A DNA stretch of 20,000 nt from an uncultured virus (IMG/VR IMGVR_UViG_2061766007_000501) (lineage: Duplodnaviria; Heunggongvirae; Uroviricota; Caudoviricetes). Under the pieces are notes generated by a model. The model did not search any database and had not been told where the DNA came from. It saw only the letters and a list, made by a program, of their open reading frames with translations. The stretch is taken from IMG/VR virus record IMGVR_UViG_2061766007_000501; one strand, given 5' to 3'. Positions 2 to 19,998 of this stretch are shown here, one piece after another. The position numbers and the translations under genes are program-made. The first letter of the stretch is position 1; every line of letters begins with the position of its first letter.

Positions 2-3000
2 ACCGAGCAGGAAGATGAGGCTGAGACAAAGCCTGCCGTTGAAACAAAGCAGCAGGAGAAGCCAGTTGGTAAAGACCTGACACAAGTAAGGCTGCGTGAA
101 CTCCAAGAAGGTGAGGTGTGCTATGCAGAGCGTAGGTTTACCGAGGATAAGAGTTTTGTATTGACGGGTGGTAATAATAAGATTGAAACAGTGGCAGATG
201 TGGCATACATCTTCCGCTGCCTGCAAGACAAGGCTATTGAGCACGCCTTTATGGTGTTTGTTAAGAACGGAGAACCTACCATTGTGCACGTAGGTATGGG
301 CACTATCAATCAGACAAATGTTGACTTTGCTCCATTAGCAGCCCTTGCCGAAGATATGCAACCTGACGAAATCTACTTTGTGCATAACCATCCAAGTGGT
401 AACTTGCAGCCATCCAAGGCCGACATGTCACTGGTAAGCGGATTTAGGAAAGCTATCAAATCTGACATACCGTTAACCAACCTTATCATCGATACATACA
501 AGCACCAGTATCGTGTGTTTGCCGGTAATTCCTCGTACATTGATGAGGGTGAGGTAAGGAATGACAATGGTGAAAACCGTCAACTTCCATTGTTTGCATT
601 TGATGAGCGTGTATTCCATGATAATTTCCTGCCAAGAAAAATCAGTAGTTCGGCAGATGTATTCATCACTGCATCACTGCTTCGATTGGGCGATAACAAA
701 AAGATTGGATATGTTGTCATGGATCAGGCGGCAACTGTGATGGGTAATCTTTACTTGCCCGTTAGCAATGTTAGGGATATCACAGAAGACATGATGAGAG
801 ACATGATAAAGAACATCATGCTAATGAACGGTACCCAAATAGCATTGCATGGTACGGCCAAGTTTATAAATAGGGAAGTCACGCAGTTTACCAAAGCATT
901 CAATACCTTGTCTAAAGGAGAGGTGAGGGTAACTGATGTGATAGCCATGAATGGAGCCGATGGCGACTACCAAGGTTATTACAGTGCGCATGACAATGAT
1001 GTAATGGAGCCTAATTCTGTTTATGGAACCGTTAATGAGCCTGGAGGAACAATAACCTACAATGAGGTACGTGACGATGGCAATGTGCCGCAAAAAACAG
1101 GGAAAGGCTACAAAGTGTTTGTTTTGAAAGACGGTAAGCTCTATCCTCCAATGGTGGCTAATCCTAATGGTGCAGCTACACCAGTGGGTGTGTGGCTGGA
1201 AGCCCATGCAGCACCTGTGGCTGGCACCAGTAAGACTGGCAGACCACAAGTAAAAGCAGGTGGCAAAGGCACTCAGGGTGGTAGTGGTACGTCGGCGTAT
1301 CGTCCAGGATGGCATTTAGGCGAGATACCATACGCAAAGCAGTTCAACCGTGTAGATGAGAATGGCAATAAAAACCTGTTCCCTGCCAATTTCGTGTGGG
1401 CAGAAGTGGAATATGCCAACGATGTGGACTATCAGGAAGAAGCACGCAAAGAGGGTACCAATGCCAACGGCAAGTATCAGCACTCGTTGGCCGGCCTGAA
1501 GCGTGTGCCTGAGAATGGCAGTTATCGTTATCGTACTAACCCTGACCCAACAACCGATGAATGGATCATAACAGGTGCCATGAAGGTAAACCGCATACTT
1601 ACTCCAAGCGAAGTGGATGAAATGGTAAGGGCTGCAGGACGTGAGCCACAGAAACGTCAGGAAGGTGCAGTTACTGATGAGCAGGTTGGAGAGCTGAATG
1701 AAAATCTGTTTGGTATTCCACAAAGGCGAGCTGGCGAAGATTTGTTTGCCTTTGCTGAGCGTGTGGCAAATGGTTATGACAAGAGACGCAGTGAAGCGGC
1801 TTCCAATGTAGCACGGGATAGTGGTAAAGAGGAAATACCTTTGTCCCATGATGAGGCTGTGGCACAGGCTAAACAGTATGAACAAGAACATAAGGGTGCT
1901 GCTCGTACAATCGTGTTGGATAAGTCAGGTGACATGGTTCAGCAGCTGGTTGATGCAGGTGTCAGCCGTGATGTTGCCCAGGAATGGGTTGATGAAGGTG
2001 ATAGTGATGCGGCATACAACGAATTTCACGATATTGTAATAATATTTAATCCACGTGTTGGAAAAGACACTCTAAATGGCTATCTTTGCCATGAGAATGC
2101 ACATAGATACCTCGACTCTTTGCCAGCAGATGAGCGTGCAAGGTTAGTTGATATGGTATATAGAAGATTGTCTAATGCCAACAAAAAGCTAAAAGAGATA
2201 GCAGATTATGTGCATGAGGCTTATGCTGACAGGAGTGATGAAGAGCAGAAGGAAGAGTTTGTTTGCCACTTCCTGCAACGTGCAGCCATGACTAAGAAGA
2301 TGACGCTCGGAGAGAATGTTGAGTATGTTATCGAGCATTTTGACAAGTATGGCGAGCTAAATATATTACGTGACATTATAACTTTTATTGATAATGGAAG
2401 ACAAGAAGAAACAGGAAACGGACAACTTTCTGGCCGACAGCGGGGACGGATGGAAGATGAAATGCGGACACCCGACTTCGAAAAAGAAAAAAGAAAAAAA
2501 GACATCGTAAGCAACCCATCGGGTGTTAACATCACCATGCGTGACAAAGCTGCTGCCCGTGCTGCATACGAAAAAGAGGTTAGCAGTGCATCATATCAGG
2601 CACGTGAGGCTTTGCAGGATAGTATGCGAGGCCTGCACGCATTGTATAAAGCTGTGCTTGGTAAGGCGTTTACCAAAATTGAAGATGTTCCGGGCTTTGA
2701 GAATGCTTATACGGCAGAGAACCGTTTGAGCAGCGAAAGTTCCGGGCAGCAGGAAGAGTATGGTGTTAAATTCATGGTGCCCCTGCTGGATGCGGTCAGC
2801 AGGCTGACTGGCAATGATAAGGATGGGGAAAATATGAACAAGCTTACCGACTACATGATGGCTAAACACGGGTTGGAGCGAAACCGTGTGTTGGCGGCAC
2901 GTGACGCTAGGCGAGTGAGTGATGACTGGCTTCGTGATGCCTTGCAAAATCTAAACGGCAACCTGAAGCGTGATTTGGCAAACCTAAAAGGCAGGCTGAC

Positions 3001-5710
3001 TCGCAATGAAATCAACCAGGCACAGTTTGACACGATGAAGGTTGCATTGGAAAATAAAGCTGCAAAGGAAAAGGTTGCCTATGAGCAGGAAGCGGAGAGA
3101 ATGCGCCAAGCTGCCGAGGCGGAAAATAGGCAAAGAGATTATGCTGGTCTGACATCCCTGACAGGTGTAGAACCTAATGACGTGGCAGGCGCTGAGGCTG
3201 AGGCAAAGCGGATGGTTGAAGAATACGAGCGTGAGCATAAGCCAGAGGATATCAAAGACCTATGGGATAAAGTACGTGCCGCAACACGCAATACATTGGA
3301 GAAAATCTACAAGAGCGGTTTGTTGAGTAATGATGCGTATCAGAATACACTGAAAATGTTTGAGTATTACATCCCACTACGTGGCTTTGATGAAGAAACA
3401 AGTGATAAGGTGTATGATTACCTCTATGACAATGACGGTCCCCTTAAAGGCAGGATATTACAATCCGCAGGAGGAAGACGCAGTAAGGCAGATAACCCGT
3501 TTGCATATATATCTCAGATGGCTGACAGAGGCATCATGGAGGGTAACCGCAACCGCATGAAGCAAACCTTCTTGAACTTTGTGCTGAACCACCCTACCGA
3601 CCTGGTGAGCGTGAGCGATATGTGGGTTGAGTATAATTCTCTGGCCAATGAAGGAAAAGGTGGATGGGTAGCCATATTTCCTGATATTGACCCAAAAGAC
3701 ACGCCAGAGGAAGTGCAACAGAAAATTGAGGATTTTGAAAAGCGTATGAAGGAACTGCACGACCAGCAGCCTGACAAATACAAGCGTATAAAAGAGGAAC
3801 CCAATATCCCATACCGTGTGCTGAACAACAACCTGCGTGAGCATCAGGTAATAGTGAAGCGAAATGGCGTACCTACTGTGCTTACCATCAATGGCAACCC
3901 ACGTGCGGCACAGGCGTTGAATGGCATGACTAATCCCGATACTCGCCTTAGCAAGCTGATGCAGGCCATCAACGAGTGGTTAACACAAATGTTGCGCTTT
4001 ATGAGCAACGTCTATACCACATTGTCCCCAGATTTTGTGCTCAGTAACTTCCTGCGTGACTTTGGCTATACAGTTATCATGTCTGGCATGAAGGAGAATG
4101 CTAACTACTTGAAAGCATTTGAAAAGAACAGGCTCCGCTTTAACCCCATCACCATGCACAGGCTGTTTAAGAAGTTCCAAAATGGCACATTGGATGAAAA
4201 CGATCCGATAGAAAAGATGTTCCATCAGTTTATGGTTAACGGTGGTGAGACTGGCTACACCAACGTTCTGGATATTCAGGGACACAAGAAGAAGATAGAG
4301 AATATATTGCGTAGAAATAATGGCAATACAGCCAAAAAAGCCTGGGATTTGCTGGCAGAGAATTATGACCTGCTGAACAGGAGCGTGGAAAATGTGGCTC
4401 GCTTCGCTGCGTTTGTGACAAGTAGGGAAATGGGTGGAAGTGTTGAAAGGAGCATTTGGGATGCCAAGGAGATATCGGTCAACTTCAACAAGAAGGGCAG
4501 TGCCGACAGGTTCTTTAACAGCACAAGTACCACATGGCAGGGTAACGTCGCCGGCGGCATAGGTGCAATAGGCAGGCTCACACAGGTATTCTTCAATGCT
4601 GCCGTGCAGGCACTCACTAATTTCTTAAGGGCATACAGTTATAACCCAAAGAAAATGACGGGAGCCATAAGCGGTATTGCTCTTGTTGGCCTGCTGCAGC
4701 CAATCTTAGCAGAACTGCTCAGTGGCAATGATGACGACGACGGAGATTACTATGACCTGCCTGAATATTTAAGACGTACCCATCTCTGTTTCCGTATTCC
4801 TGGCACAAAGAACTGGGTAACCATACCGATGACGCAGGAGCTGCGTGCCATCTTCGGATTTGGTGAAATGGTATCAGGTATCATCACTGGCAAGGAGCCG
4901 CAGAATCCTGCAGATTTTACGATGAAAACCATTGAACTGGTCAGCCAGTCACTTCCTGTTGACATGTTTGAAGGTGCCGGAGGACTTAGTAAGTTTGTAC
5001 CCTCACAGGTACAGCCAGCCTATGAGATATGGGTGAACAAGGATTGGACAGGACTACCAATCTACCGTCAAGATGTTTATCCTGGTGACGAGAACAAGCC
5101 TGAATGGACAATGGTATATAAGAGTACGGACAAGCATCTTGTCGAGGCCTCCAGATTACTGAGCCACCTTTCAGGGGGTAAGGGAGAATACAAGCGAGGC
5201 TTTATCGAGATAAACCCTGCATGGGTGGAGCATTTGGGCGAAGGCTATCTTGGCGGTATATGGAATACTTTCATAAAAAACAAGAAAACCATTGAAACTA
5301 TCTTTGGACAAAGGGAGTTTGAGCCGAGAAATATGATGCTTTTGAACCGTGTGCTGTATCGCAGTGATGAACGTTCACAGGGTAGAAAGACACAGGAACT
5401 GTTCTATAAATACAAGGAAGAAGCCGAAAAGACGAAAGCAGAGGTGAAAGGATACCAGAAGGAACTGGAAAAGAATGGGGACGTATTCGATGAGGCTGCA
5501 ATGATTGACTACCTGAATTTCTCTGATGAGTATGGTCGCTATCAGATTTACGAAAAGTACCGTCCTGAGATAAATGCAGCCAAGAGGGGAAAGAAAGTTG
5601 CCATCAATGAAGAGGACAAGGTGAACGAAGAGTTCTATGAAAATGAGGAAAAACGCCTCATGAAAGAGATGGTTGACGAGATGGAACAGTTCAACAAGGA
5701 ACGCAAATAG
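2..5710 (+). CDS. Large polyvalent protein (5'-truncated): JAB/RadC-like domain, degenerate second JAB, YRPGWH domain, zincin-like metallopeptidase, coiled coil, LPD38-like C-terminus
   Basis: Frame is open from position 2 (TEQEDEAE...VRLRELQEGEVCYAERRF), so the true start lies upstream. JAB motif E..HNHPSGNLQPSKAD (HNHPSG at 383-400). HENAH at 2090-2104 with downstream EEFVCH. C-terminal DYYDLPEYLRRTHLCFRIPG..WVTIPMTQELR resembles LPD38. Confidence 0.85.
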   Translation, partial: TEQEDEAETKPAVETKQQEKPVGKDLTQVRLRELQEGEVCYAERRFTEDKSFVLTGGNNKIETVADVAYIFRCLQDKAIEHAFMVFVKNGEPTIVHVGMGTINQTNVDFAPLAALAEDMQPDEIYFVHNHPSGNLQPSKADMSLVSGFRKAIKSDIPLTNLIIDTYKHQYRVFAGNSSYIDEGEVRNDNGENRQLPLFAFDERVFHDNFLPRKISSSADVFITASLLRLGDNKKIGYVVMDQAATVMGNLYLPVSNVRDITEDMMRDMIKNIMLMNGTQIALHGTAKFINREVTQFTKAFNTLSKGEVRVTDVIAMNGADGDYQGYYSAHDNDVMEPNSVYGTVNEPGGTITYNEVRDDGNVPQKTGKGYKVFVLKDGKLYPPMVANPNGAATPVGVWLEAHAAPVAGTSKTGRPQVKAGGKGTQGGSGTSAYRPGWHLGEIPYAKQFNRVDENGNKNLFPANFVWAEVEYANDVDYQEEARKEGTNANGKYQHSLAGLKRVPENGSYRYRTNPDPTTDEWIITGAMKVNRILTPSEVDEMVRAAGREPQKRQEGAVTDEQVGELNENLFGIPQRRAGEDLFAFAERVANGYDKRRSEAASNVARDSGKEEIPLSHDEAVAQAKQYEQEHKGAARTIVLDKSGDMVQQLVDAGVSRDVAQEWVDEGDSDAAYNEFHDIVIIFNPRVGKDTLNGYLCHENAHRYLDSLPADERARLVDMVYRRLSNANKKLKEIADYVHEAYADRSDEEQKEEFVCHFLQRAAMTKKMTLGENVEYVIEHFDKYGELNILRDIITFIDNGRQEETGNGQLSGRQRGRMEDEMRTPDFEKEKRKKDIVSNPSGVNITMRDKAAARAAYEKEVSSASYQAREALQDSMRGLHALYKAVLGKAFTKIEDVPGFENAYTAENRLSSESSGQQEEYGVKFMVPLLDAVSRLTGNDKDGENMNKLTDYMMAKHGLERNRVLAARDARRVSDDWLRDALQNLNGNLKRDLANLKGRLTRNEINQAQFDTMKVALENKAAKEKVAYEQEAERMRQAAEAENRQRDYAGLTSLTGVEPNDVAGAEAEAKRMVEEYEREHKPEDIKDLWDKVRAATRNTLEKIYKSGLLSNDAYQNTLKMFEYYIPLRGFDEETSDKVYDYLYDNDGPLKGRILQSAGGRRSKADNPFAYISQMADRGIMEGNRNRMKQTFLNFVLNHPTDLVSVSDMWVEYNSLANEGKGGWVAIFPDIDPKDTPEEVQQKIEDFEKRMKELHDQQPDKYKRIKEEPNIPYRVLNNNLREHQVIVKRNGVPTVLTINGNPRAAQALNGMTNPDTRLSKLMQAINEWLTQMLRFMSNVYTTLSPDFVLSNFLRDFGYTVIMSGMKENANYLKAFEKNRLRFNPITMHRLFKKFQNGTLDENDPIEKMFHQFMVNGGETGYTNVLDIQGHKKKIENILRRNNGNTAKKAWDLLAENYDLLNRSVENVARFAAFVTSREMGGSVERSIWDAKEISVNFNKKGSADRFFNSTSTTWQGNVAGGIGAIGRLTQVFFNAAVQALTNFLRAYSYNPKKMTGAISGIALVGLLQPILAELLSGNDDDDGDYYDLPEYLRRTHLCFRIPGTKNWVTIPMTQELRAIFGFGEMVSGIITGKEPQNPADFTMKTIELVSQSLPVDMFEGAGGLSKFVPSQVQPAYEIWVNKDWTGLPIYRQDVYPGDENKPEWTMVYKSTDKHLVEASRLLSHLSGGKGEYKRGFIEINPAWVEHLGEGYLGGIWNTFIKNKKTIETIFGQREFEPRNMMLLNRVLYRSDERSQGRKTQELFYKYKEEAEKTKAEVKGYQKELEKNGDVFDEAAMIDYLNFSDEYGRYQIYEKYRPEINAAKRGKKVAINEEDKVNEEFYENEEKRLMKEMVDEMEQFNKERK

Positions 5711-5740
5711 TTAAAATAAGTTCTAGCCATGATTAGTTTT

Positions 5741-5784
5741 CGTGCAGGGGTTGTGTCGTGATTTGGCGCAGCCCCTGATTTATT
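5741..5784 (+). terminator. Probable intrinsic terminator / stem-loop after the polyvalent gene (copy 1)
   Basis: caggggttgtgtc / ggcgcagcccctg stem with G-U pairs on the + strand, followed by atttatt. Confidence 0.65.
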
Positions 5785-8747: not shown

Positions 8748-8790
8748 TACTAAATACTCAGAATAAACAAGAGCTTCCTGTGTATAATTC

Positions 8791-8836
8791 CGTGCAGGGG
8801 TTGTGTCAGGATATGGCGCAGCTCCTGCTTTTTTTT
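8791..8836 (+). terminator. Intrinsic terminator (copy 2 of the 5741 hairpin)
   Basis: gcaggggttgtgtca / tggcgcagctcctgc stem followed by T8. Confidence 0.75.
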
Positions 8837-9454: not shown

Positions 9455-10411
9455 ATGGCAACAGAAGTTATTTCTATTCCCGAAAATGGAGCAGGCGGCA
9501 GCAACACCGTACCTGCATGGTATCCTGCCATGATGAACGGAGGCCTGGGCGGTGGTCTTGGCCTTGGCGGTTGGGGTGGCGGCATCCTGGGTTTCCTCAT
9601 TGGATTGATGTTTGGTAACAACGGCTTTGGCGGTGGCTTGTTTGGCGGTGGCTATCGTAACAATGCAGCAGGCACTGCCTATCTTGGCAACATGATCAGC
9701 AACGACAATGGACGTGATTTGCTGATGCAGGCAATCAACAATAGCGGGGAGCGCAGCACGCAAGCTGTGCAGCAGCTCTCAACCATGATTGGTCAGGACT
9801 TCAATCTGGTGAACGGTGCCGTGCAGAACCTGCAGACTGCCTTGAACCAGGTGGCGAATGCGCAAGGCATCAATGCTCTGCAGGTCATCAACGCCATCCA
9901 GGCAGGCAACGCAAGCCTGGCAAGCCAGTTTGCTCAGTGCTGCTGCGAGAACCGTCTAGGCATGTGTCAGCAGACCAATGCCATCAACCAGGGCTTTGCC
10001 GGCGTACAGCAGAGCATAGCAGCCAAGAGTGCAGCAGACCAGTTATCAACTTGCCAGCAGACATACGCTCTGACCGACACCATGAACCGCAACTATCTTG
10101 CTCTTGACAACAAGATCGATGCGATGGAGTCAAGCCGCAAAGACCGTGAGTTGGCAGCCAAGGATGCGGAAATCGCAACTCTGAAATCACAGAACTTCAC
10201 GGCAGGCATCGTGCAGCAGGCAGTGGCTCCTATCAACGCACAGCTGGCTGGCCTTGCCAAGGAGGTGGATGACATCAAGTGCAAGCAGCCTTCAACGGTA
10301 AGCGTGCAGTATCCCAACCTTGTGGCTATGAACGCTACCCCTTATGTAAGCGGTGGCTTCTATCCCAACGGCAACGGCTTCAGTGGCTGGGGTGGTAACG
10401 TGGTGTTCTGA
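9455..10411 (+). CDS. Gly-rich hydrophobic N-terminus / coiled-coil 'CCC' phage protein, function unknown
   Basis: GGLGGGLGLGGWGGGILGFLIGLMFGNNGFGGG segment, long Q/N/A heptads, AQCCCENR, DDIKCKQP. Confidence 0.85.
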   Translation: MATEVISIPENGAGGSNTVPAWYPAMMNGGLGGGLGLGGWGGGILGFLIGLMFGNNGFGGGLFGGGYRNNAAGTAYLGNMISNDNGRDLLMQAINNSGERSTQAVQQLSTMIGQDFNLVNGAVQNLQTALNQVANAQGINALQVINAIQAGNASLASQFAQCCCENRLGMCQQTNAINQGFAGVQQSIAAKSAADQLSTCQQTYALTDTMNRNYLALDNKIDAMESSRKDRELAAKDAEIATLKSQNFTAGIVQQAVAPINAQLAGLAKEVDDIKCKQPSTVSVQYPNLVAMNATPYVSGGFYPNGNGFSGWGGNVVF

Positions 10412-10417
10412 TAAAGC

Positions 10418-10774
10418 ATGAGGAGGACGGATATGGGATGCTTTAGCATAACTACCAATGCAGGTGGAGTGCCTTACCTGACCACGACAAACATCACCGT
10501 GTCTGCCACGGCTGTTGACTTTGCCCTGGGATGGATGCGCAGGCAACTGCCACCTGTGGGCTACCTGACAATCAGGATAGCCAACGAGATACCTACCGGC
10601 ACTACTGCCACATTACCCATTACCATCACGCTGAATGGCGTTACACGTGCATTGACATTGTATGACGGGACAGCCGTTACCGTAGCCGACCTGATAGGCG
10701 GTACTGGAGTGATAACAGTGTTCAATGACCGTTTCAACGGCATTCTTCAGCTGATGTCACAGGGTGTGGCATAA
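10418..10774 (+). CDS. Hypothetical Thr/Val-rich beta-strand protein
   Basis: 118-aa ORF starting 6 nt after the previous stop; beta-rich composition; start may be the second Met. Confidence 0.8.
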   Translation: MRRTDMGCFSITTNAGGVPYLTTTNITVSATAVDFALGWMRRQLPPVGYLTIRIANEIPTGTTATLPITITLNGVTRALTLYDGTAVTVADLIGGTGVITVFNDRFNGILQLMSQGVA

Positions 10775-10810
10775 TGCAGTTTATTATACAATCATTAAAA
10801 ACTAAAGCTT

Positions 10811-11323
10811 ATGTTTTCAACGTTACAAAAAGGCACACTGATTTACGTGCTTGACAGACGGGGTGATGACCCTGTGCTAAAGCAGGGATTGCTGGCTGAG
10901 GATGCCATGAAATTGGCACCCAACCTTACACAACCCCTGCAGATGGGCATGATGCCAGAGCAGCTTGTAAAGCTGACGATGGAATCCGCTAACGGTGACA
11001 AGATGGAGCTGACAAGTCTCCCTGGTAGCCAGAACACATTTACATATCCAGATGGTAAGATTACGGTGACAGAAAGCCATGATGCTATACAGGGCATTAT
11101 CAGTGGCTTGAAACGCCAAAGTGACGAAGTGGTGAACGGATACGATAGGCACCTGCATCTGAGTGATGTCTATAAGAACATGCTCATGGACTTGAACCCC
11201 GAATATCGCAAGAATGAGGAGCGTGACCGTGAGATGGAGTCACTGAAAAGTGATGTGAACGAAATGAAGGGCATGATGAAGCAGTTGCTTGCTATGAACG
11301 GTGGAAGCGTAGGTGGTAAATAA
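10811..11323 (+). CDS. Hypothetical protein with C-terminal coiled coil
   Basis: MFSTLQKGTLIYVLDR...LNPEYRKNEERDREMESLKSDVNEMKGMMKQLL; AT-rich translation initiation region. Confidence 0.8.
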   Translation: MFSTLQKGTLIYVLDRRGDDPVLKQGLLAEDAMKLAPNLTQPLQMGMMPEQLVKLTMESANGDKMELTSLPGSQNTFTYPDGKITVTESHDAIQGIISGLKRQSDEVVNGYDRHLHLSDVYKNMLMDLNPEYRKNEERDREMESLKSDVNEMKGMMKQLLAMNGGSVGGK

Positions 11324-11335
11324 AGAACAAGCAAT

Positions 11336-11650
11336 ATGGCAAGATATTTGATTATATCGTCTGACAACGAAGACCAGAAGATCAAGGATGCGCTGGCGAG
11401 TATAGGCGCAGAAGAAGCTGGGATGCGCAGCGGGATGCGCAGCGGCTATCGCCGTGACAGCAGGGGCTATCCTATGGATGTGACCAATCTGCGCAGCGGG
11501 ATGCGTGGCAACTATCACGACAACCAGCAGGAGATTGATGCTTTGGAGGAGCAGATTCAGGAACTGAAGATGCGTAAGAAGCAACTGGAACATTCGGAAG
11601 AGGGTATGCGCCAGATGGGTGGTGCATACGGCCCCTATCCACAGTGGTAA
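11336..11650 (+). CDS. Low-complexity hypothetical protein with MRSG repeats and coiled coil
   Basis: GMRSGMRSGYR..LRSGMRG, encoded by gcgcagcgggatgcg repeats. Confidence 0.75.
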   Translation: MARYLIISSDNEDQKIKDALASIGAEEAGMRSGMRSGYRRDSRGYPMDVTNLRSGMRGNYHDNQQEIDALEEQIQELKMRKKQLEHSEEGMRQMGGAYGPYPQW

Positions 11651-11660
11651 TTGTGAAGTG

Positions 11661-11692
11661 GGTTTGCGGTGGAGATATCTTCATCGCAAACC
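11661..11692 (+). other. Intra-operon stem-loop
   Basis: ggtttgcggtggag-atat-cttcatcgcaaacc. Confidence 0.55.
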
Positions 11693-11733
11693 ATTTCCAG
11701 TATTTAACTTGAAAAATAGAAAGGAGTGCCGAT

Positions 11734-12156
11734 ATGTGTATGTGTAATGTGATAACTAGATTCCCTGCTGACATGCTTTCGTATATCAATGCCTATGGCT
11801 TGCACTTCAACAAGCCGCTTTGCGAATTTGCCGTAAAGAACATGCGTAAGAAGGACGTTAGCGGCAAGCCGATTGAGATAACTCCCGTCACCCGTGAGCA
11901 GTTGAGCATCATGATGAAAGAGGCTGGCTTTGCTCTTAACGACAAGAACGTTGTGTGGGATGGCGTGTATCTGGCCAATATGTGCCTTGCGGACTATATG
12001 GGTGGAGCCATTGCGGACAACCGTCACCTGGCGATGTTTGTCAAGCAGACACTGGATGACCCTGATGGCTGTGAGGGGCAGACATTCAACCGCTGGTATG
12101 CAGACATGTGTTTGGCTGGCAAGCAGCAGTATATTGACTGGGAAGAGATGATTTGA
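11734..12156 (+). CDS. Conserved phage hypothetical protein (YGxHFNKxLCEFAV family)
   Basis: YINAYGLHFNKPLCEFAVKNM..DGVYLANMCLADY..LDDPDG..FNRWYAD..IDWEEMI. Confidence 0.8.
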   Translation: MCMCNVITRFPADMLSYINAYGLHFNKPLCEFAVKNMRKKDVSGKPIEITPVTREQLSIMMKEAGFALNDKNVVWDGVYLANMCLADYMGGAIADNRHLAMFVKQTLDDPDGCEGQTFNRWYADMCLAGKQQYIDWEEMI

Positions 12157-12157
12157 A

Positions 12158-12529
12158 ATGCGTAGGCAGGACTTCACCATAACAGATACAGGATGGTGGA
12201 TAACCGTATTCCACGGTGCCACACCTGACAAGCTTGGTGAGGTGGCTGCCTCGCTGATTGATGCTGGCGAAGGTACCAGAAAAACCGCTGAGGCTATATG
12301 GGTGCTGCAAAAGCCTAACACAGGCTACACCTATACAAACTTCGATAACAAGAGGGGGGTGTCCGTTATCGGCAGGGCAACATCTGACAGGCAATACGCA
12401 AATACGTTCACCCATGAGCTAAAGCATATAGTGGAACACCTATCAACCTATTATGGAGTTGACCCGAAGAGCGAGCAAGCAGGCTATCTGCAAGGATATA
12501 TAGGTGCAAGGATGCTGACTTTTTATTAA
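12158..12529 (+). CDS. Small zincin-like metallopeptidase (HExxH)
   Basis: TFTHELKHIVEH followed by SEQAGYLQGYI (third-ligand Glu). Confidence 0.75.
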   Translation: MRRQDFTITDTGWWITVFHGATPDKLGEVAASLIDAGEGTRKTAEAIWVLQKPNTGYTYTNFDNKRGVSVIGRATSDRQYANTFTHELKHIVEHLSTYYGVDPKSEQAGYLQGYIGARMLTFY

Positions 12530-18206: not shown

Positions 18207-19121
18207 TTATTTTTTTGATATGTCTTTATCCAGCTTATCAAGCATTGCTTCCTGCTTCTGACGTTCCAGCTCTGCAATGGCATTCTCTTTTAATTCGTTG
18301 AGATCGCTGACCGCATTTACGAACTCGCCTTTGGTGCGAAAAATCTCCTTGAAGTCGGTGATGGCAGATGAGGCTGCGTCAAAGACAAGGGCTGGATGTG
18401 TCCACTTGTTCTGCAGCTGACGGATGCCAAGCGCAATATTCTCCTCGTCATACGTACTCAGCTTATGGCTGCTGATGCCTGGTTCCAGCGTGACAAGAGC
18501 CTTGTTCCAGAGGTCTGCTATATCTCGTATGAGGAACCCACGGAACAGGCTCTTCAGGATGTCCTTAGATACTCCCGTCTCTTTCACGCACTGCTTGATT
18601 GCCTCCTGCCAAATGTCGCATGACAGCTCCAGGCAGGTCATGGCAGCCATGCAGTATGATAGTGGCTCTGCATGCTCCTCCTTCTCGCCATTATGCAAAA
18701 ACGACAGGCGGTACTTGTTGGCAAGGCTACCGATGAGGGGTTTGCTGTCCATATAGACTGGCGAACCCAAGCCCTGCCACATTTCGAAGAACTGGCGGTC
18801 AGTGATATCACCGTAAAAGCTCCTGACGTGCTCATCCATATCGGCAAGGTGGAAAAACCTTTTCTGCCTAGCATAGAGCAGGTTGTTTTCGTAAGTCCTC
18901 CATTTATCGAACACCTTACGGAACAGGCTACCGGCACGGCCTATGTAGCCCGGATAAGCTTTGATTCTATCGTGTGCGTCAACCATCACCAGGTATGTGG
19001 CATTGTTGGCCACGCCAGTTGATGTCTTAACGACTGATGAGGCCACTGCAATAGCCCTCACGAACTCATCATTGGTGTACCCTTTCGGGTTTGTTATCGG
19101 ATTATATCTTATTGTTCTCAT
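18207..19121 (-). CDS. Hypothetical helical phage protein (304 aa)
   Basis: Long ORF in operon orientation; no motif recognised. Confidence 0.85.
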   Translation of the reverse strand: MRTIRYNPITNPKGYTNDEFVRAIAVASSVVKTSTGVANNATYLVMVDAHDRIKAYPGYIGRAGSLFRKVFDKWRTYENNLLYARQKRFFHLADMDEHVRSFYGDITDRQFFEMWQGLGSPVYMDSKPLIGSLANKYRLSFLHNGEKEEHAEPLSYCMAAMTCLELSCDIWQEAIKQCVKETGVSKDILKSLFRGFLIRDIADLWNKALVTLEPGISSHKLSTYDEENIALGIRQLQNKWTHPALVFDAASSAITDFKEIFRTKGEFVNAVSDLNELKENAIAELERQKQEAMLDKLDKDISKK

Positions 19122-19125
19122 TTAT

Positions 19126-19281
19126 TCACTGTTTATGAATTATCCTACTGAGCCCTGGCAAGGACTGGCAATGTCCATGAAAGCGGTATGGAGGGTGTGC
19201 AAGCAATACGCAGATAAGCCTGAGCGAACTTTCTTTGTCACGCTCCCTTACCAAATTATATGACCTCCTGTAATTATCCAT
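19126..19281 (-). CDS. Possible 51-aa ORF (or structured RNA) downstream of the pentamer array
   Basis: MDNYRRSYNLVRERDKESSLRLICVLLAHPPYRFHGHCQ...; stop 4 nt before the next ATG; the second copy (19472-19594) keeps the frame. Confidence 0.4.
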   Translation of the reverse strand: MDNYRRSYNLVRERDKESSLRLICVLLAHPPYRFHGHCQSLPGLSRIIHKQ

Positions 19282-19287
19282 AAAAAA

Positions 19288-19383
19288 ACTACGCTTTGCT
19301 TTGCTTCGCTTTGCCCNNNNNNNNNNTACTTAGCTCCGCAAGGCTGGGCTTTGATTAGCTTGGCTGGGCTATGCTTTCGCTAT
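19288..19383 (-). repeat. Pentamer (AGC-NN) array, copy A, interrupted by a 10-N gap
   Basis: Minus strand: at AGC gaa AGC at AGC cc AGC ca AGC ta ATC aa AGC cc AGC ct TGC gg AGC ta AGT [gap] GGC aa AGC ga AGC aa AGC aa AGC gt AGT. Confidence 0.85.
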
Positions 19384-19461
19384 TTATTTCACTTTCTTTA
19401 CGTCAAATCTTCCATATCTACGCCTGTATGTGCCAACACCGTACCTCATACCTGCTATATC
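19384..19461 (-). CDS. 3' end of a second Cas7/RAMP-like gene copy, cut by an assembly gap
   Basis: DIAGMRYGVGTYRRRYGRFDVKKVK* versus EIAGLRYGVGTYRRRYGRYEIKKVK* in the 19699 gene; changes are mostly synonymous. Confidence 0.75.
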   Translation of the reverse strand, partial: DIAGMRYGVGTYRRRYGRFDVKKVK

Positions 19462-19602
19462 NNNNNNNNNNTAAGCCCTGGCAATGCCCATGAAAGCGGT
19501 ATGGAGGGTGTGCAAGCGATACGCAGATAAACCTGAGCGAACTTTCTTTGTCACGCTCCCTTACCAAATTATATGACTTTCTGTAGTTGTCCATTTTAAA
19601 AA

Positions 19603-19698
19603 ACTATGCTATGCTGCGCTTCGCTGCGCTCTGCCGTGCTTCGGCTACGTTTCGCTTTGCTTCTCTATGCTCAGTTAAGCTTTGCTTTGCTATGTTGA
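19603..19698 (-). ncRNA. Pentamer (AGC-NN) array, copy B; putative guide-type RNA
   Basis: Begins 2 nt after the stop: AAC at AGC aa AGC aa AGC tt AAC tg AGC at AGA ga AGC aa AGC ga AAC gt AGC cga AGC ac GGC ag AGC gc AGC ga AGC gc AGC at AGC at AGT, then a T-tract; 19 triplets, 13 of them AGC. Confidence 0.7.
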
Positions 19699-19998
19699 CT
19701 ATTTCACTTTCTTAATTTCATACCTTCCGTACCTCCTGCGATAGGTGCCGACCCCGTAACGGAGGCCTGCTATCTCAGCTATCTCCATCACCTCCGACTC
19801 GTTCAGCTGGCTCTCGTCAAACCAGCACGTGCATTCAGCACTCCATTCAGGTATGATGGCACGGGTAGTGGTAATCTTCACATTCTTGATGCCAACGGCA
19901 CGAACGTCCACATAGATGCCAAGGTTGTACAGTTTATCTGGTGGAATCATCTTATCCCTGAAATCAAGCTTTGCATCATCGAATATGCGGAAGCTCTT
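19699..19998 (-). CDS. Cas7/RAMP-like (Vipr-like) protein, N-terminus outside the window
   Basis: Frame is open to the window edge (KSFRIFDDAKLDFRDKMIPP...). YVDVRAVGIKNVKITTTRAIIPEWSAECTCWFD..AGLRYGVGTYRRRYGRYEI shows a thumb-like hairpin and a C-terminal G-x-G-x-x-R-x-x-x-G-R-(Y/F) loop as in RAMP proteins. Confidence 0.7.
   Translation of the reverse strand, partial: KSFRIFDDAKLDFRDKMIPPDKLYNLGIYVDVRAVGIKNVKITTTRAIIPEWSAECTCWFDESQLNESEVMEIAEIAGLRYGVGTYRRRYGRYEIKKVK

Follow-up and report, generated by a model that had tools for sequence, protein, structure and literature searches.

A cattle-gut phage VIPR locus with an AGY scaffold, present as two alleles that carry different guide arrays

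VIPR was published in 2026, and the locus described here makes testable where its new guides come from and how scaffolds other than GGY are read. The closest described systems are the type II VIPRs of SUSP1 and of a P. fulva prophage, which have a homologous RAMP protein of ~190 aa (10.64898/2026.04.26.720920; 10.64898/2026.04.26.720927). In cryo-EM structures, H17 and D177 are the readers of scaffold base 1 (10.64898/2026.04.26.720927), and perturbing GGY abolished SUSP1 silencing, with GGY>AGY among the listed changes (10.64898/2026.04.26.720920). SUSP1 guides are directed against the vipr genes of rivals and against an excision recombinase (10.64898/2026.10.15.759431). Non-canonical arrays have been described as YNNNG (Methods of 10.64898/2026.04.26.720920) and as WGT/NN and others (10.64898/2026.10.21.760802). 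The AGY scaffold that we report falls within these, and this variant class is already in print. What is new here is the covariation of residue 17 with the scaffold, the skip rule in the AGY clade, and the allelic guide cassettes. The main texts of 10.64898/2026.04.26.720920 and 10.64898/2026.10.21.760802, whose supplements and figures may include the clade, contain no link between scaffold base and residue, no test of the skip rule for such arrays and no allelic guide exchange. The term "AGY" appears once in the main text of 10.64898/2026.04.26.720920 and is absent from the main texts of 720927, 760802 and 759431; "recombination" is absent from the main text of 10.64898/2026.04.26.720920 and occurs in 10.64898/2026.10.15.759431 in the methods only.

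The window, by which we mean the whole 20,000-nt stretch of viral DNA analyzed, comes from a cattle-gut phage that carries an AGY-scaffold VIPR, an RNA-guided gene silencer. As written, its minus strand carries the end of a gene (from 19998 to 19699); next come an AGC/NN array, the shared segment and a 10-N gap, and the set then recurs as a gene tail, an array with a gap of its own, and the shared segment again. The earlier note had described two copies, and both are confirmed on the minus strand: over their final 25 codons, 20 residues are identical, and downstream a 129-nt segment (19160-19288 versus 19473-19601) is directly repeated at 91%. The start of copy B belongs at 19472 and not at 19478. 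In copy B, the C-terminal 99 codons of vipr (19699..19998, minus strand; the 5′ half lies beyond the window end) are followed by an array of ~18 AGY/NN units (19603..19700, minus), which is contiguous with the gene in contigs X1 record 6 and X2 record 12. Two irregular units in it, one of 4 nt and one of 6, possibly mark two staggered guides, and the array terminates in AGT plus a T run. In copy A, a vipr 3′ end (19384..19461, minus) is, by the parse and the bubble contigs, the alternative to 19699-19776. Array A (19288..19381, minus) comprises nine in-register units, a gap of 45 unseen letters, and five units. The contig joint table gives the content of the gap at 19317-19326 as 45 letters rather than 10, so array A is ~35 nt longer than shown. 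A separate parse reproduced the NN lists first drawn up for A and B; past an irregular 3-nt unit, B continues for seven more units.

We identify the window gene, on sequence and on a predicted model, as Vipr, a small stand-alone RAMP with a thumb and a G-loop. Among 90 candidates, 53 are homologous to the window protein, mostly 187-191 aa long; one of them, P0001, is 90% identical to it over 99 residues. A search with P0001 matched 130 phage records, and 80 relatives lie on viral contigs. The family profile matches the Vipr of SUSP1 (agp039) at E 1e-28, with 28% identity between P0001 and agp039 over 188 residues. The agp039 record, with GGY arrays on both sides, has H17, E71, M72, R138, C173, D177, W178 and R179. 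The same residues are named for Vipr in 10.64898/2026.04.26.720927, whose T175 is V in this record. The window protein retains the thumb Arg and the Y-R of the G-loop and has T in place of D177 of SUSP1. The predicted model (pLDDT 91) has Csm3/Cas7 chains as its first structural matches, which is the fold of Class 1 CRISPR Cas7/Csm3 proteins. Unlike Class 1 CRISPR, the window contains neither a CRISPR array nor a cas operon, and the pentamer code is non-contiguous. An Rfam search of the window gave no match, and Pfam holds no family for Vipr or for the small ORF that follows it. Other markers within the window, a BRO-N protein with a KilAC antirepressor domain and an LPD38 protein, are those of a phage. 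Five of six genome matches are labelled Bacteroidales (the sixth Bathyarchaeota), and the host is probably a member of the Bacteroidota.

Tandem pentamers lie next to the gene, each combining a fixed trinucleotide with a variable NN. On the minus strand, RGY recurs with a 5-nt period for at most 8 units in a row; 60 shuffles gave maxima of 3-5, and the rest of the strand reaches 3. Scaffold base 1 is A in 27 units, G in 2 and T in 1; these are not canonical GGY arrays, and AGY fits YNNNG, a consensus related to GGY that is also counted as VIPR. The scaffold is AGC/AGT in the window versus GGY in SUSP1, and Asn17 (inferred from homologues) and Thr177 stand in place of His and Asp. Also unlike SUSP1, the window array begins at the stop codon and leads on to a T run and a 51-codon ORF, neither vap1 nor a structured tail is seen at the locus, and the host is probably a Bacteroidota. 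By analogy with the published system, Vipr subunits would polymerize on the array RNA, one per pentamer, holding the AGY bases and presenting the NN bases. The latter would read double-stranded DNA, one base (the codon wobble position) being skipped per unit, and the guides would silence genes of rival mobile elements. RNA expression, filament formation and repression would be expected at the window locus on the same analogy.

The scaffold base follows the residue that reads it. Asn17 is found in 49 of 49 aligned homologues (the alignment took 49 of the 53); residue 17 of the window protein itself lies outside the window. For covariation we used 62 distinct Vipr sequences, leaving out the window protein, L092 and L105 as truncated or broken. 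Asn17 accompanies an A-majority scaffold in 45/45 (1,673 A and 182 G of 2,074 units), and His17 a G-majority scaffold in 16/17 (384 G and 105 A of 558 units). The sole exception is L090, in which His17 occurs with a TGT/AGT-majority (T-majority) scaffold. These rows are related to one another; on the tree, residue 17 changes four times (at least three), and three of the four changes fit the scaffold. One starred clade of His proteins branches from within the Asn proteins and has reverted to a G scaffold, and the long-branch protein of a Listonella phage has Asn with an A scaffold. Where the scaffold is AGY, residue 17 is Asn and not His, a covariation which suggests that the residue may determine the scaffold base. 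The change of Asp177 to Thr was considered as the cause of AGY and discarded: ten His17/Thr177 proteins retain G-majority scaffolds. If true, a switch at one residue, with His17 specifying G and Asn17 specifying A, would yield orthogonal VIPR channels immune to GGY-type decoy guides and usable side by side as tools. The locus offers a natural allele pair together with a single-residue prediction, His or Asn at position 17, for scaffold specificity. Separately, Listonella phage phiHSIC (L012, 2085-2430) combines Asn17 and a changed thumb residue with AGC/NGC pentamer arrays, which underlie its annotated hypothetical ORF21; this cultured phage is a lab-tractable non-GGY VIPR.

The relatives also show how such arrays may be read. 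We scanned 133 distinct guides of at least 10 units, from loci L013-L106, against those same loci (1.16 Mb, both strands, E<0.01). With a skip of 1, 22 of the 133 guides match other loci, 13 of them from His17 and 9 from Asn17/AGY loci; many guides are near-copies, so that the independent events are fewer than 22. The same scan returned no match with a skip of 0, none with a skip of 2 and none for shuffled guides, and a skip of 3 recovered only the arrays themselves. All 22 matching guides score lower on their own locus. The best AGY case reaches 31/32 in a gene of L019 that we take, from reading its protein by eye, to be tape-measure-like; further AGY cases are 23/24 in the vipr gene of L075 and 24/28 at the 3′ end of vipr in L076. 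As in the SUSP1 and P. fulva type II systems, the array lies beside the gene, the relatives' guides read with a 1-nt skip in the wobble register, and their targets are on rival phages, including their vipr genes. The 1-nt skip code thereby extends, on sequence evidence, to the AGY clade of gut Bacteroidota phages; for the guides of the window itself the evidence is suggestive. In a separate observation, two gut-phage groups among L019-L069 carry mutual guides against a tape-measure-like gene just downstream of the VIPR locus. These guides mismatch the phages' own version of the gene (sites L019:4432, L019:4657, L029:5228 and L050:6401).

The preference of the earlier note for a programmable guide over a slipped microsatellite is borne out, since the protein is Vipr and the relatives' arrays decode to real targets with a 1-nt skip. 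That reading would have failed if arrays A and B had differed only in copy number; their units differ in NN and not in copy number. One could still regard the arrays as decaying microsatellites or as orphan, non-functional guides, given several degenerate units, the lack of vap1, and the lack of a confirmed target for either window allele. We consider this very improbable. NN varies between units and copy number does not, the scaffold base follows the base-reading residue of the protein, purifying selection acts on the gene tail, and the arrays of relatives decode to targets in coding sequence, with matches as good as 31/32.

The two copies could in principle be paralogous modules in real tandem within a single genome, each with a vipr tail, an array and a small ORF, the second adding another guide set; the window itself shows two modules in a row. 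The earlier note had offered this arrangement beside that of two haplotypes scaffolded in tandem, and inspection of contigs around the gaps, where it had proposed to look at reads or the assembly graph, upholds the second and rejects the first. Parts of the stretch occur in 20 runs from 14 studies; a single bovine gut sample accounts for two of these, which contain 0.88 of the window's words. The one RNA run has a share of 0.06. The contigs of four runs were compared with the window: X1 and X2, which represent one sample and possibly the window's own source, and X5 and X3, from a second and a third study. The scaffold gap at 19462..19471, the head-to-tail joint of the two copies, is unbridged as written in the contigs of all four runs, and copy A instead runs straight to the gene body in three of them, forming a bubble. 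In X1 record 5 and X2 record 11, the contig with copy A connects 19459 to 19775, a skip of 315 that takes out all of copy B, and a separate contig bears copy B in both runs. In X5, an A-type tail continues directly into the gene body (a join of 19450 to 19766) and the array is shorter; X3 combines a B-like body with an array that is likewise shortened. Depth is 5.62 (X1) and 6.65 (X2) for copy A and 5.7 and 7.54 for copy B, compared with 10 and 12.7 in the upstream flank and 12.3 and 15.9 in the downstream flank. The 46-nt core common to A and B has a depth of 14.5 in X1, that of a single copy and not of two, whereas in a real tandem each copy would reach the flank depth and the core twice that. 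The bubble, the half flank depth of each copy and the single-copy depth of the core indicate one polymorphic locus. A and B are two alleles of this locus, and the tandem is an assembly artefact, without significance in itself; a true tandem in this genome is highly unlikely.

Head-to-tail growth may occur in another population. X5 record 21, a single 427-nt contig (depth 6.3), matches window positions 19053-19288 and 19679-19743 at 85% likeness; it holds a short array, next 65 nt that resemble the 3′ end of vipr, and finally the terminal part of a further array. It is the one further item in favor of a tandem, and is possibly a real duplication that adds a second guide there.

The differences between the two alleles are confined to a patch. 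They span 19837 to 19159 in window numbering, ~0.4 kb per allele, and cover the last ~46 codons of vipr, the array and most of the small ORF. The vipr tails of A and B differ at 21 of 75 bases (28%), 15 of the 21 at third codon positions; all five differences listed upstream of the tail are at third positions, and 5 of the 10 in the small ORF are silent third-position changes. On either side, the flank contigs are unbranched over 6,805 and 21,459 nt, and over 559 flank positions the X1 and X2 contigs have 2-5 mismatches to the window, a near-identity that is approximate because contigs conceal isolated SNPs. Most likely, the alleles differ by a guide cassette exchanged through homologous recombination. 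The patch would have been imported from a related phage, with conserved coding flanks serving as recombination arms, and the exchange would give the phage a new guide set. A and B might instead be two distinct related phages, neither of them recombinant, whose assembly collapsed everywhere except at the patch; contig builders do merge isolated SNPs, and 2-5 differences per 559 flank positions were seen. We find this improbable: tails that diverge by 28% next to flanks that diverge by 1% or less require that the patch was exchanged at some time, and the flank contigs run for 6.8 and 21 kb without branches. Our account as a whole is of one VIPR locus in a Bacteroidota phage, with two alleles at ~1:1, placed head to tail by the scaffolder, and a patch that was most likely exchanged, and we hold it with high confidence. 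If cassette swapping is real, guides would be renewed through recombination across the interval from the 3′ end of vipr to the small gene that follows it. More tentatively, and with the odds somewhat against it, VIPR might achieve a form of "adaptation" without Cas1, in which ~0.4-kb cassette swaps, with guide sets at 1:1, combine with the residue-17 switch to give orthogonal channels.

The shared segment, the conserved 3′ segment of the earlier note, is a small protein-coding gene rather than a guide tail. A 51-codon ORF directly follows array A (19126..19281, minus), and ORFs of the same length occupy the corresponding position in the two closest loci, L093 and L094, and align without gaps (pair E 8e-4). 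Half of the changes between alleles A and B in the ORF are the silent third-position ones noted above. The allele B version, of which the window holds the first 41 codons (19472..19594, minus), is by the bubble contigs an artefactual second copy. An RNA tail or ribozyme in the segment was rejected, for it shows no stable fold relative to shuffles (z-scores -0.9 to +0.8 in five folds) and no Rfam match; an exact 24-mer from it has no match in the viral contigs. A structured 3′ tail, a feature of VIPR type II, was not found at the window locus. Nor was a vap1 homologue found in the window, L093, L094 or seven rumen-type loci, the DNA upstream of vipr lying outside the window; one is present in the gut relatives L013, L016, L050 and L091, with a profile that matches SUSP1 vap1 at E 5e-16. 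Human-gut and other relatives (L013-L070, L090-L106) have a guide-terminal hairpin, with a GTTCGA loop like that of a tRNA T-arm, just after vipr. Rumen-type loci (L071-L089) carry up to 10 guides with short linkers between them and no hairpin. After the small ORF, the window holds a gene of 304 aa (18207-19121, minus) that matches no Pfam family above the cut-off and lacks a homologue in those of the fetched loci that were compared.

For the guides of the window, allele A gives a candidate target. With 2 mismatches allowed, a scan of 401 Prevotella-genus genomes with the 19 bases of guide A gives 31 matches, spread over 30 genomes, and the reversed control gives 1. Thirty of the 31 match strings read one peptide motif, and all 20 fetched target loci are one family of small HTH proteins, in the wobble register, with HTH_17 in the three members scanned. 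We presume these to be excisionase-like, and the neighbors of the target genes resemble integrative elements. The match to this family is 17/19 with two fixed mismatches; one family counts as one event, and the control implies about one chance family per pattern. Independent support comes from three of 174 other guides (L075 at 22/26, E 1e-5; L080; and L085, at the same site), which with a skip of 1 match the opposite strand in 11 of these genes; none of the 174 does so with a skip of 0 or 2, and 0-1 do in 10 shuffles. The balance of the sequence matches tips slightly toward the view that the first guide of allele A aims at excisionase-like genes of integrated Prevotella elements.

Exact scans of viral contigs with guide A count against this target; they returned no match at 18 bases, and the seven at 16 bases were unrelated and set aside, five having an in-frame stop. 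A likeness to the start of the next gene (5/9 units by eye) was dropped as chance. Against all fetched loci, no window guide rises above chance. Allele B has no accepted target among the scans run. Its 18-base pattern has five exact matches in viral contigs, which is the chance expectation. One of them, in a tyrosine-integrase gene on a fragment of 26% GC (L111), extends to 20/20, or to 22/22 if an out-of-register first unit is counted; we rejected it because five is the chance count, the second half of array B is mismatched, and no other window guide matches that contig. Guide B has no match at 1 mismatch in the 401 Prevotella-genus genomes; at 3 mismatches it matches 227 of them, scattered and with no dominant family among the 150 matches listed.

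The second guide of L093 (1370-1430) and of L094 (1296-1356) shares its register, rare degenerate scaffold units and several NN with guide A. This likeness suggests inheritance of guides, with drift, among phages that share 73% identity in Vipr. In L093, this homologous guide matches the excisionase genes by eye at a further 5-6 of 9 bases, below threshold.

Elsewhere in the window, a polyvalent protein of >1,900 aa with a RadC-like JAB domain and LPD38 is encoded at 2-5710 (plus strand). Intergenic 47-nt copies at 5738-5784 and 8788-8834, with 85% identity, a hairpin and a T-rich end, are probably terminators. A gene cluster at 9455-12529 (plus) encodes a glycine-rich protein of 318 aa and several small proteins with Gly/Met/Arg-rich repeats.
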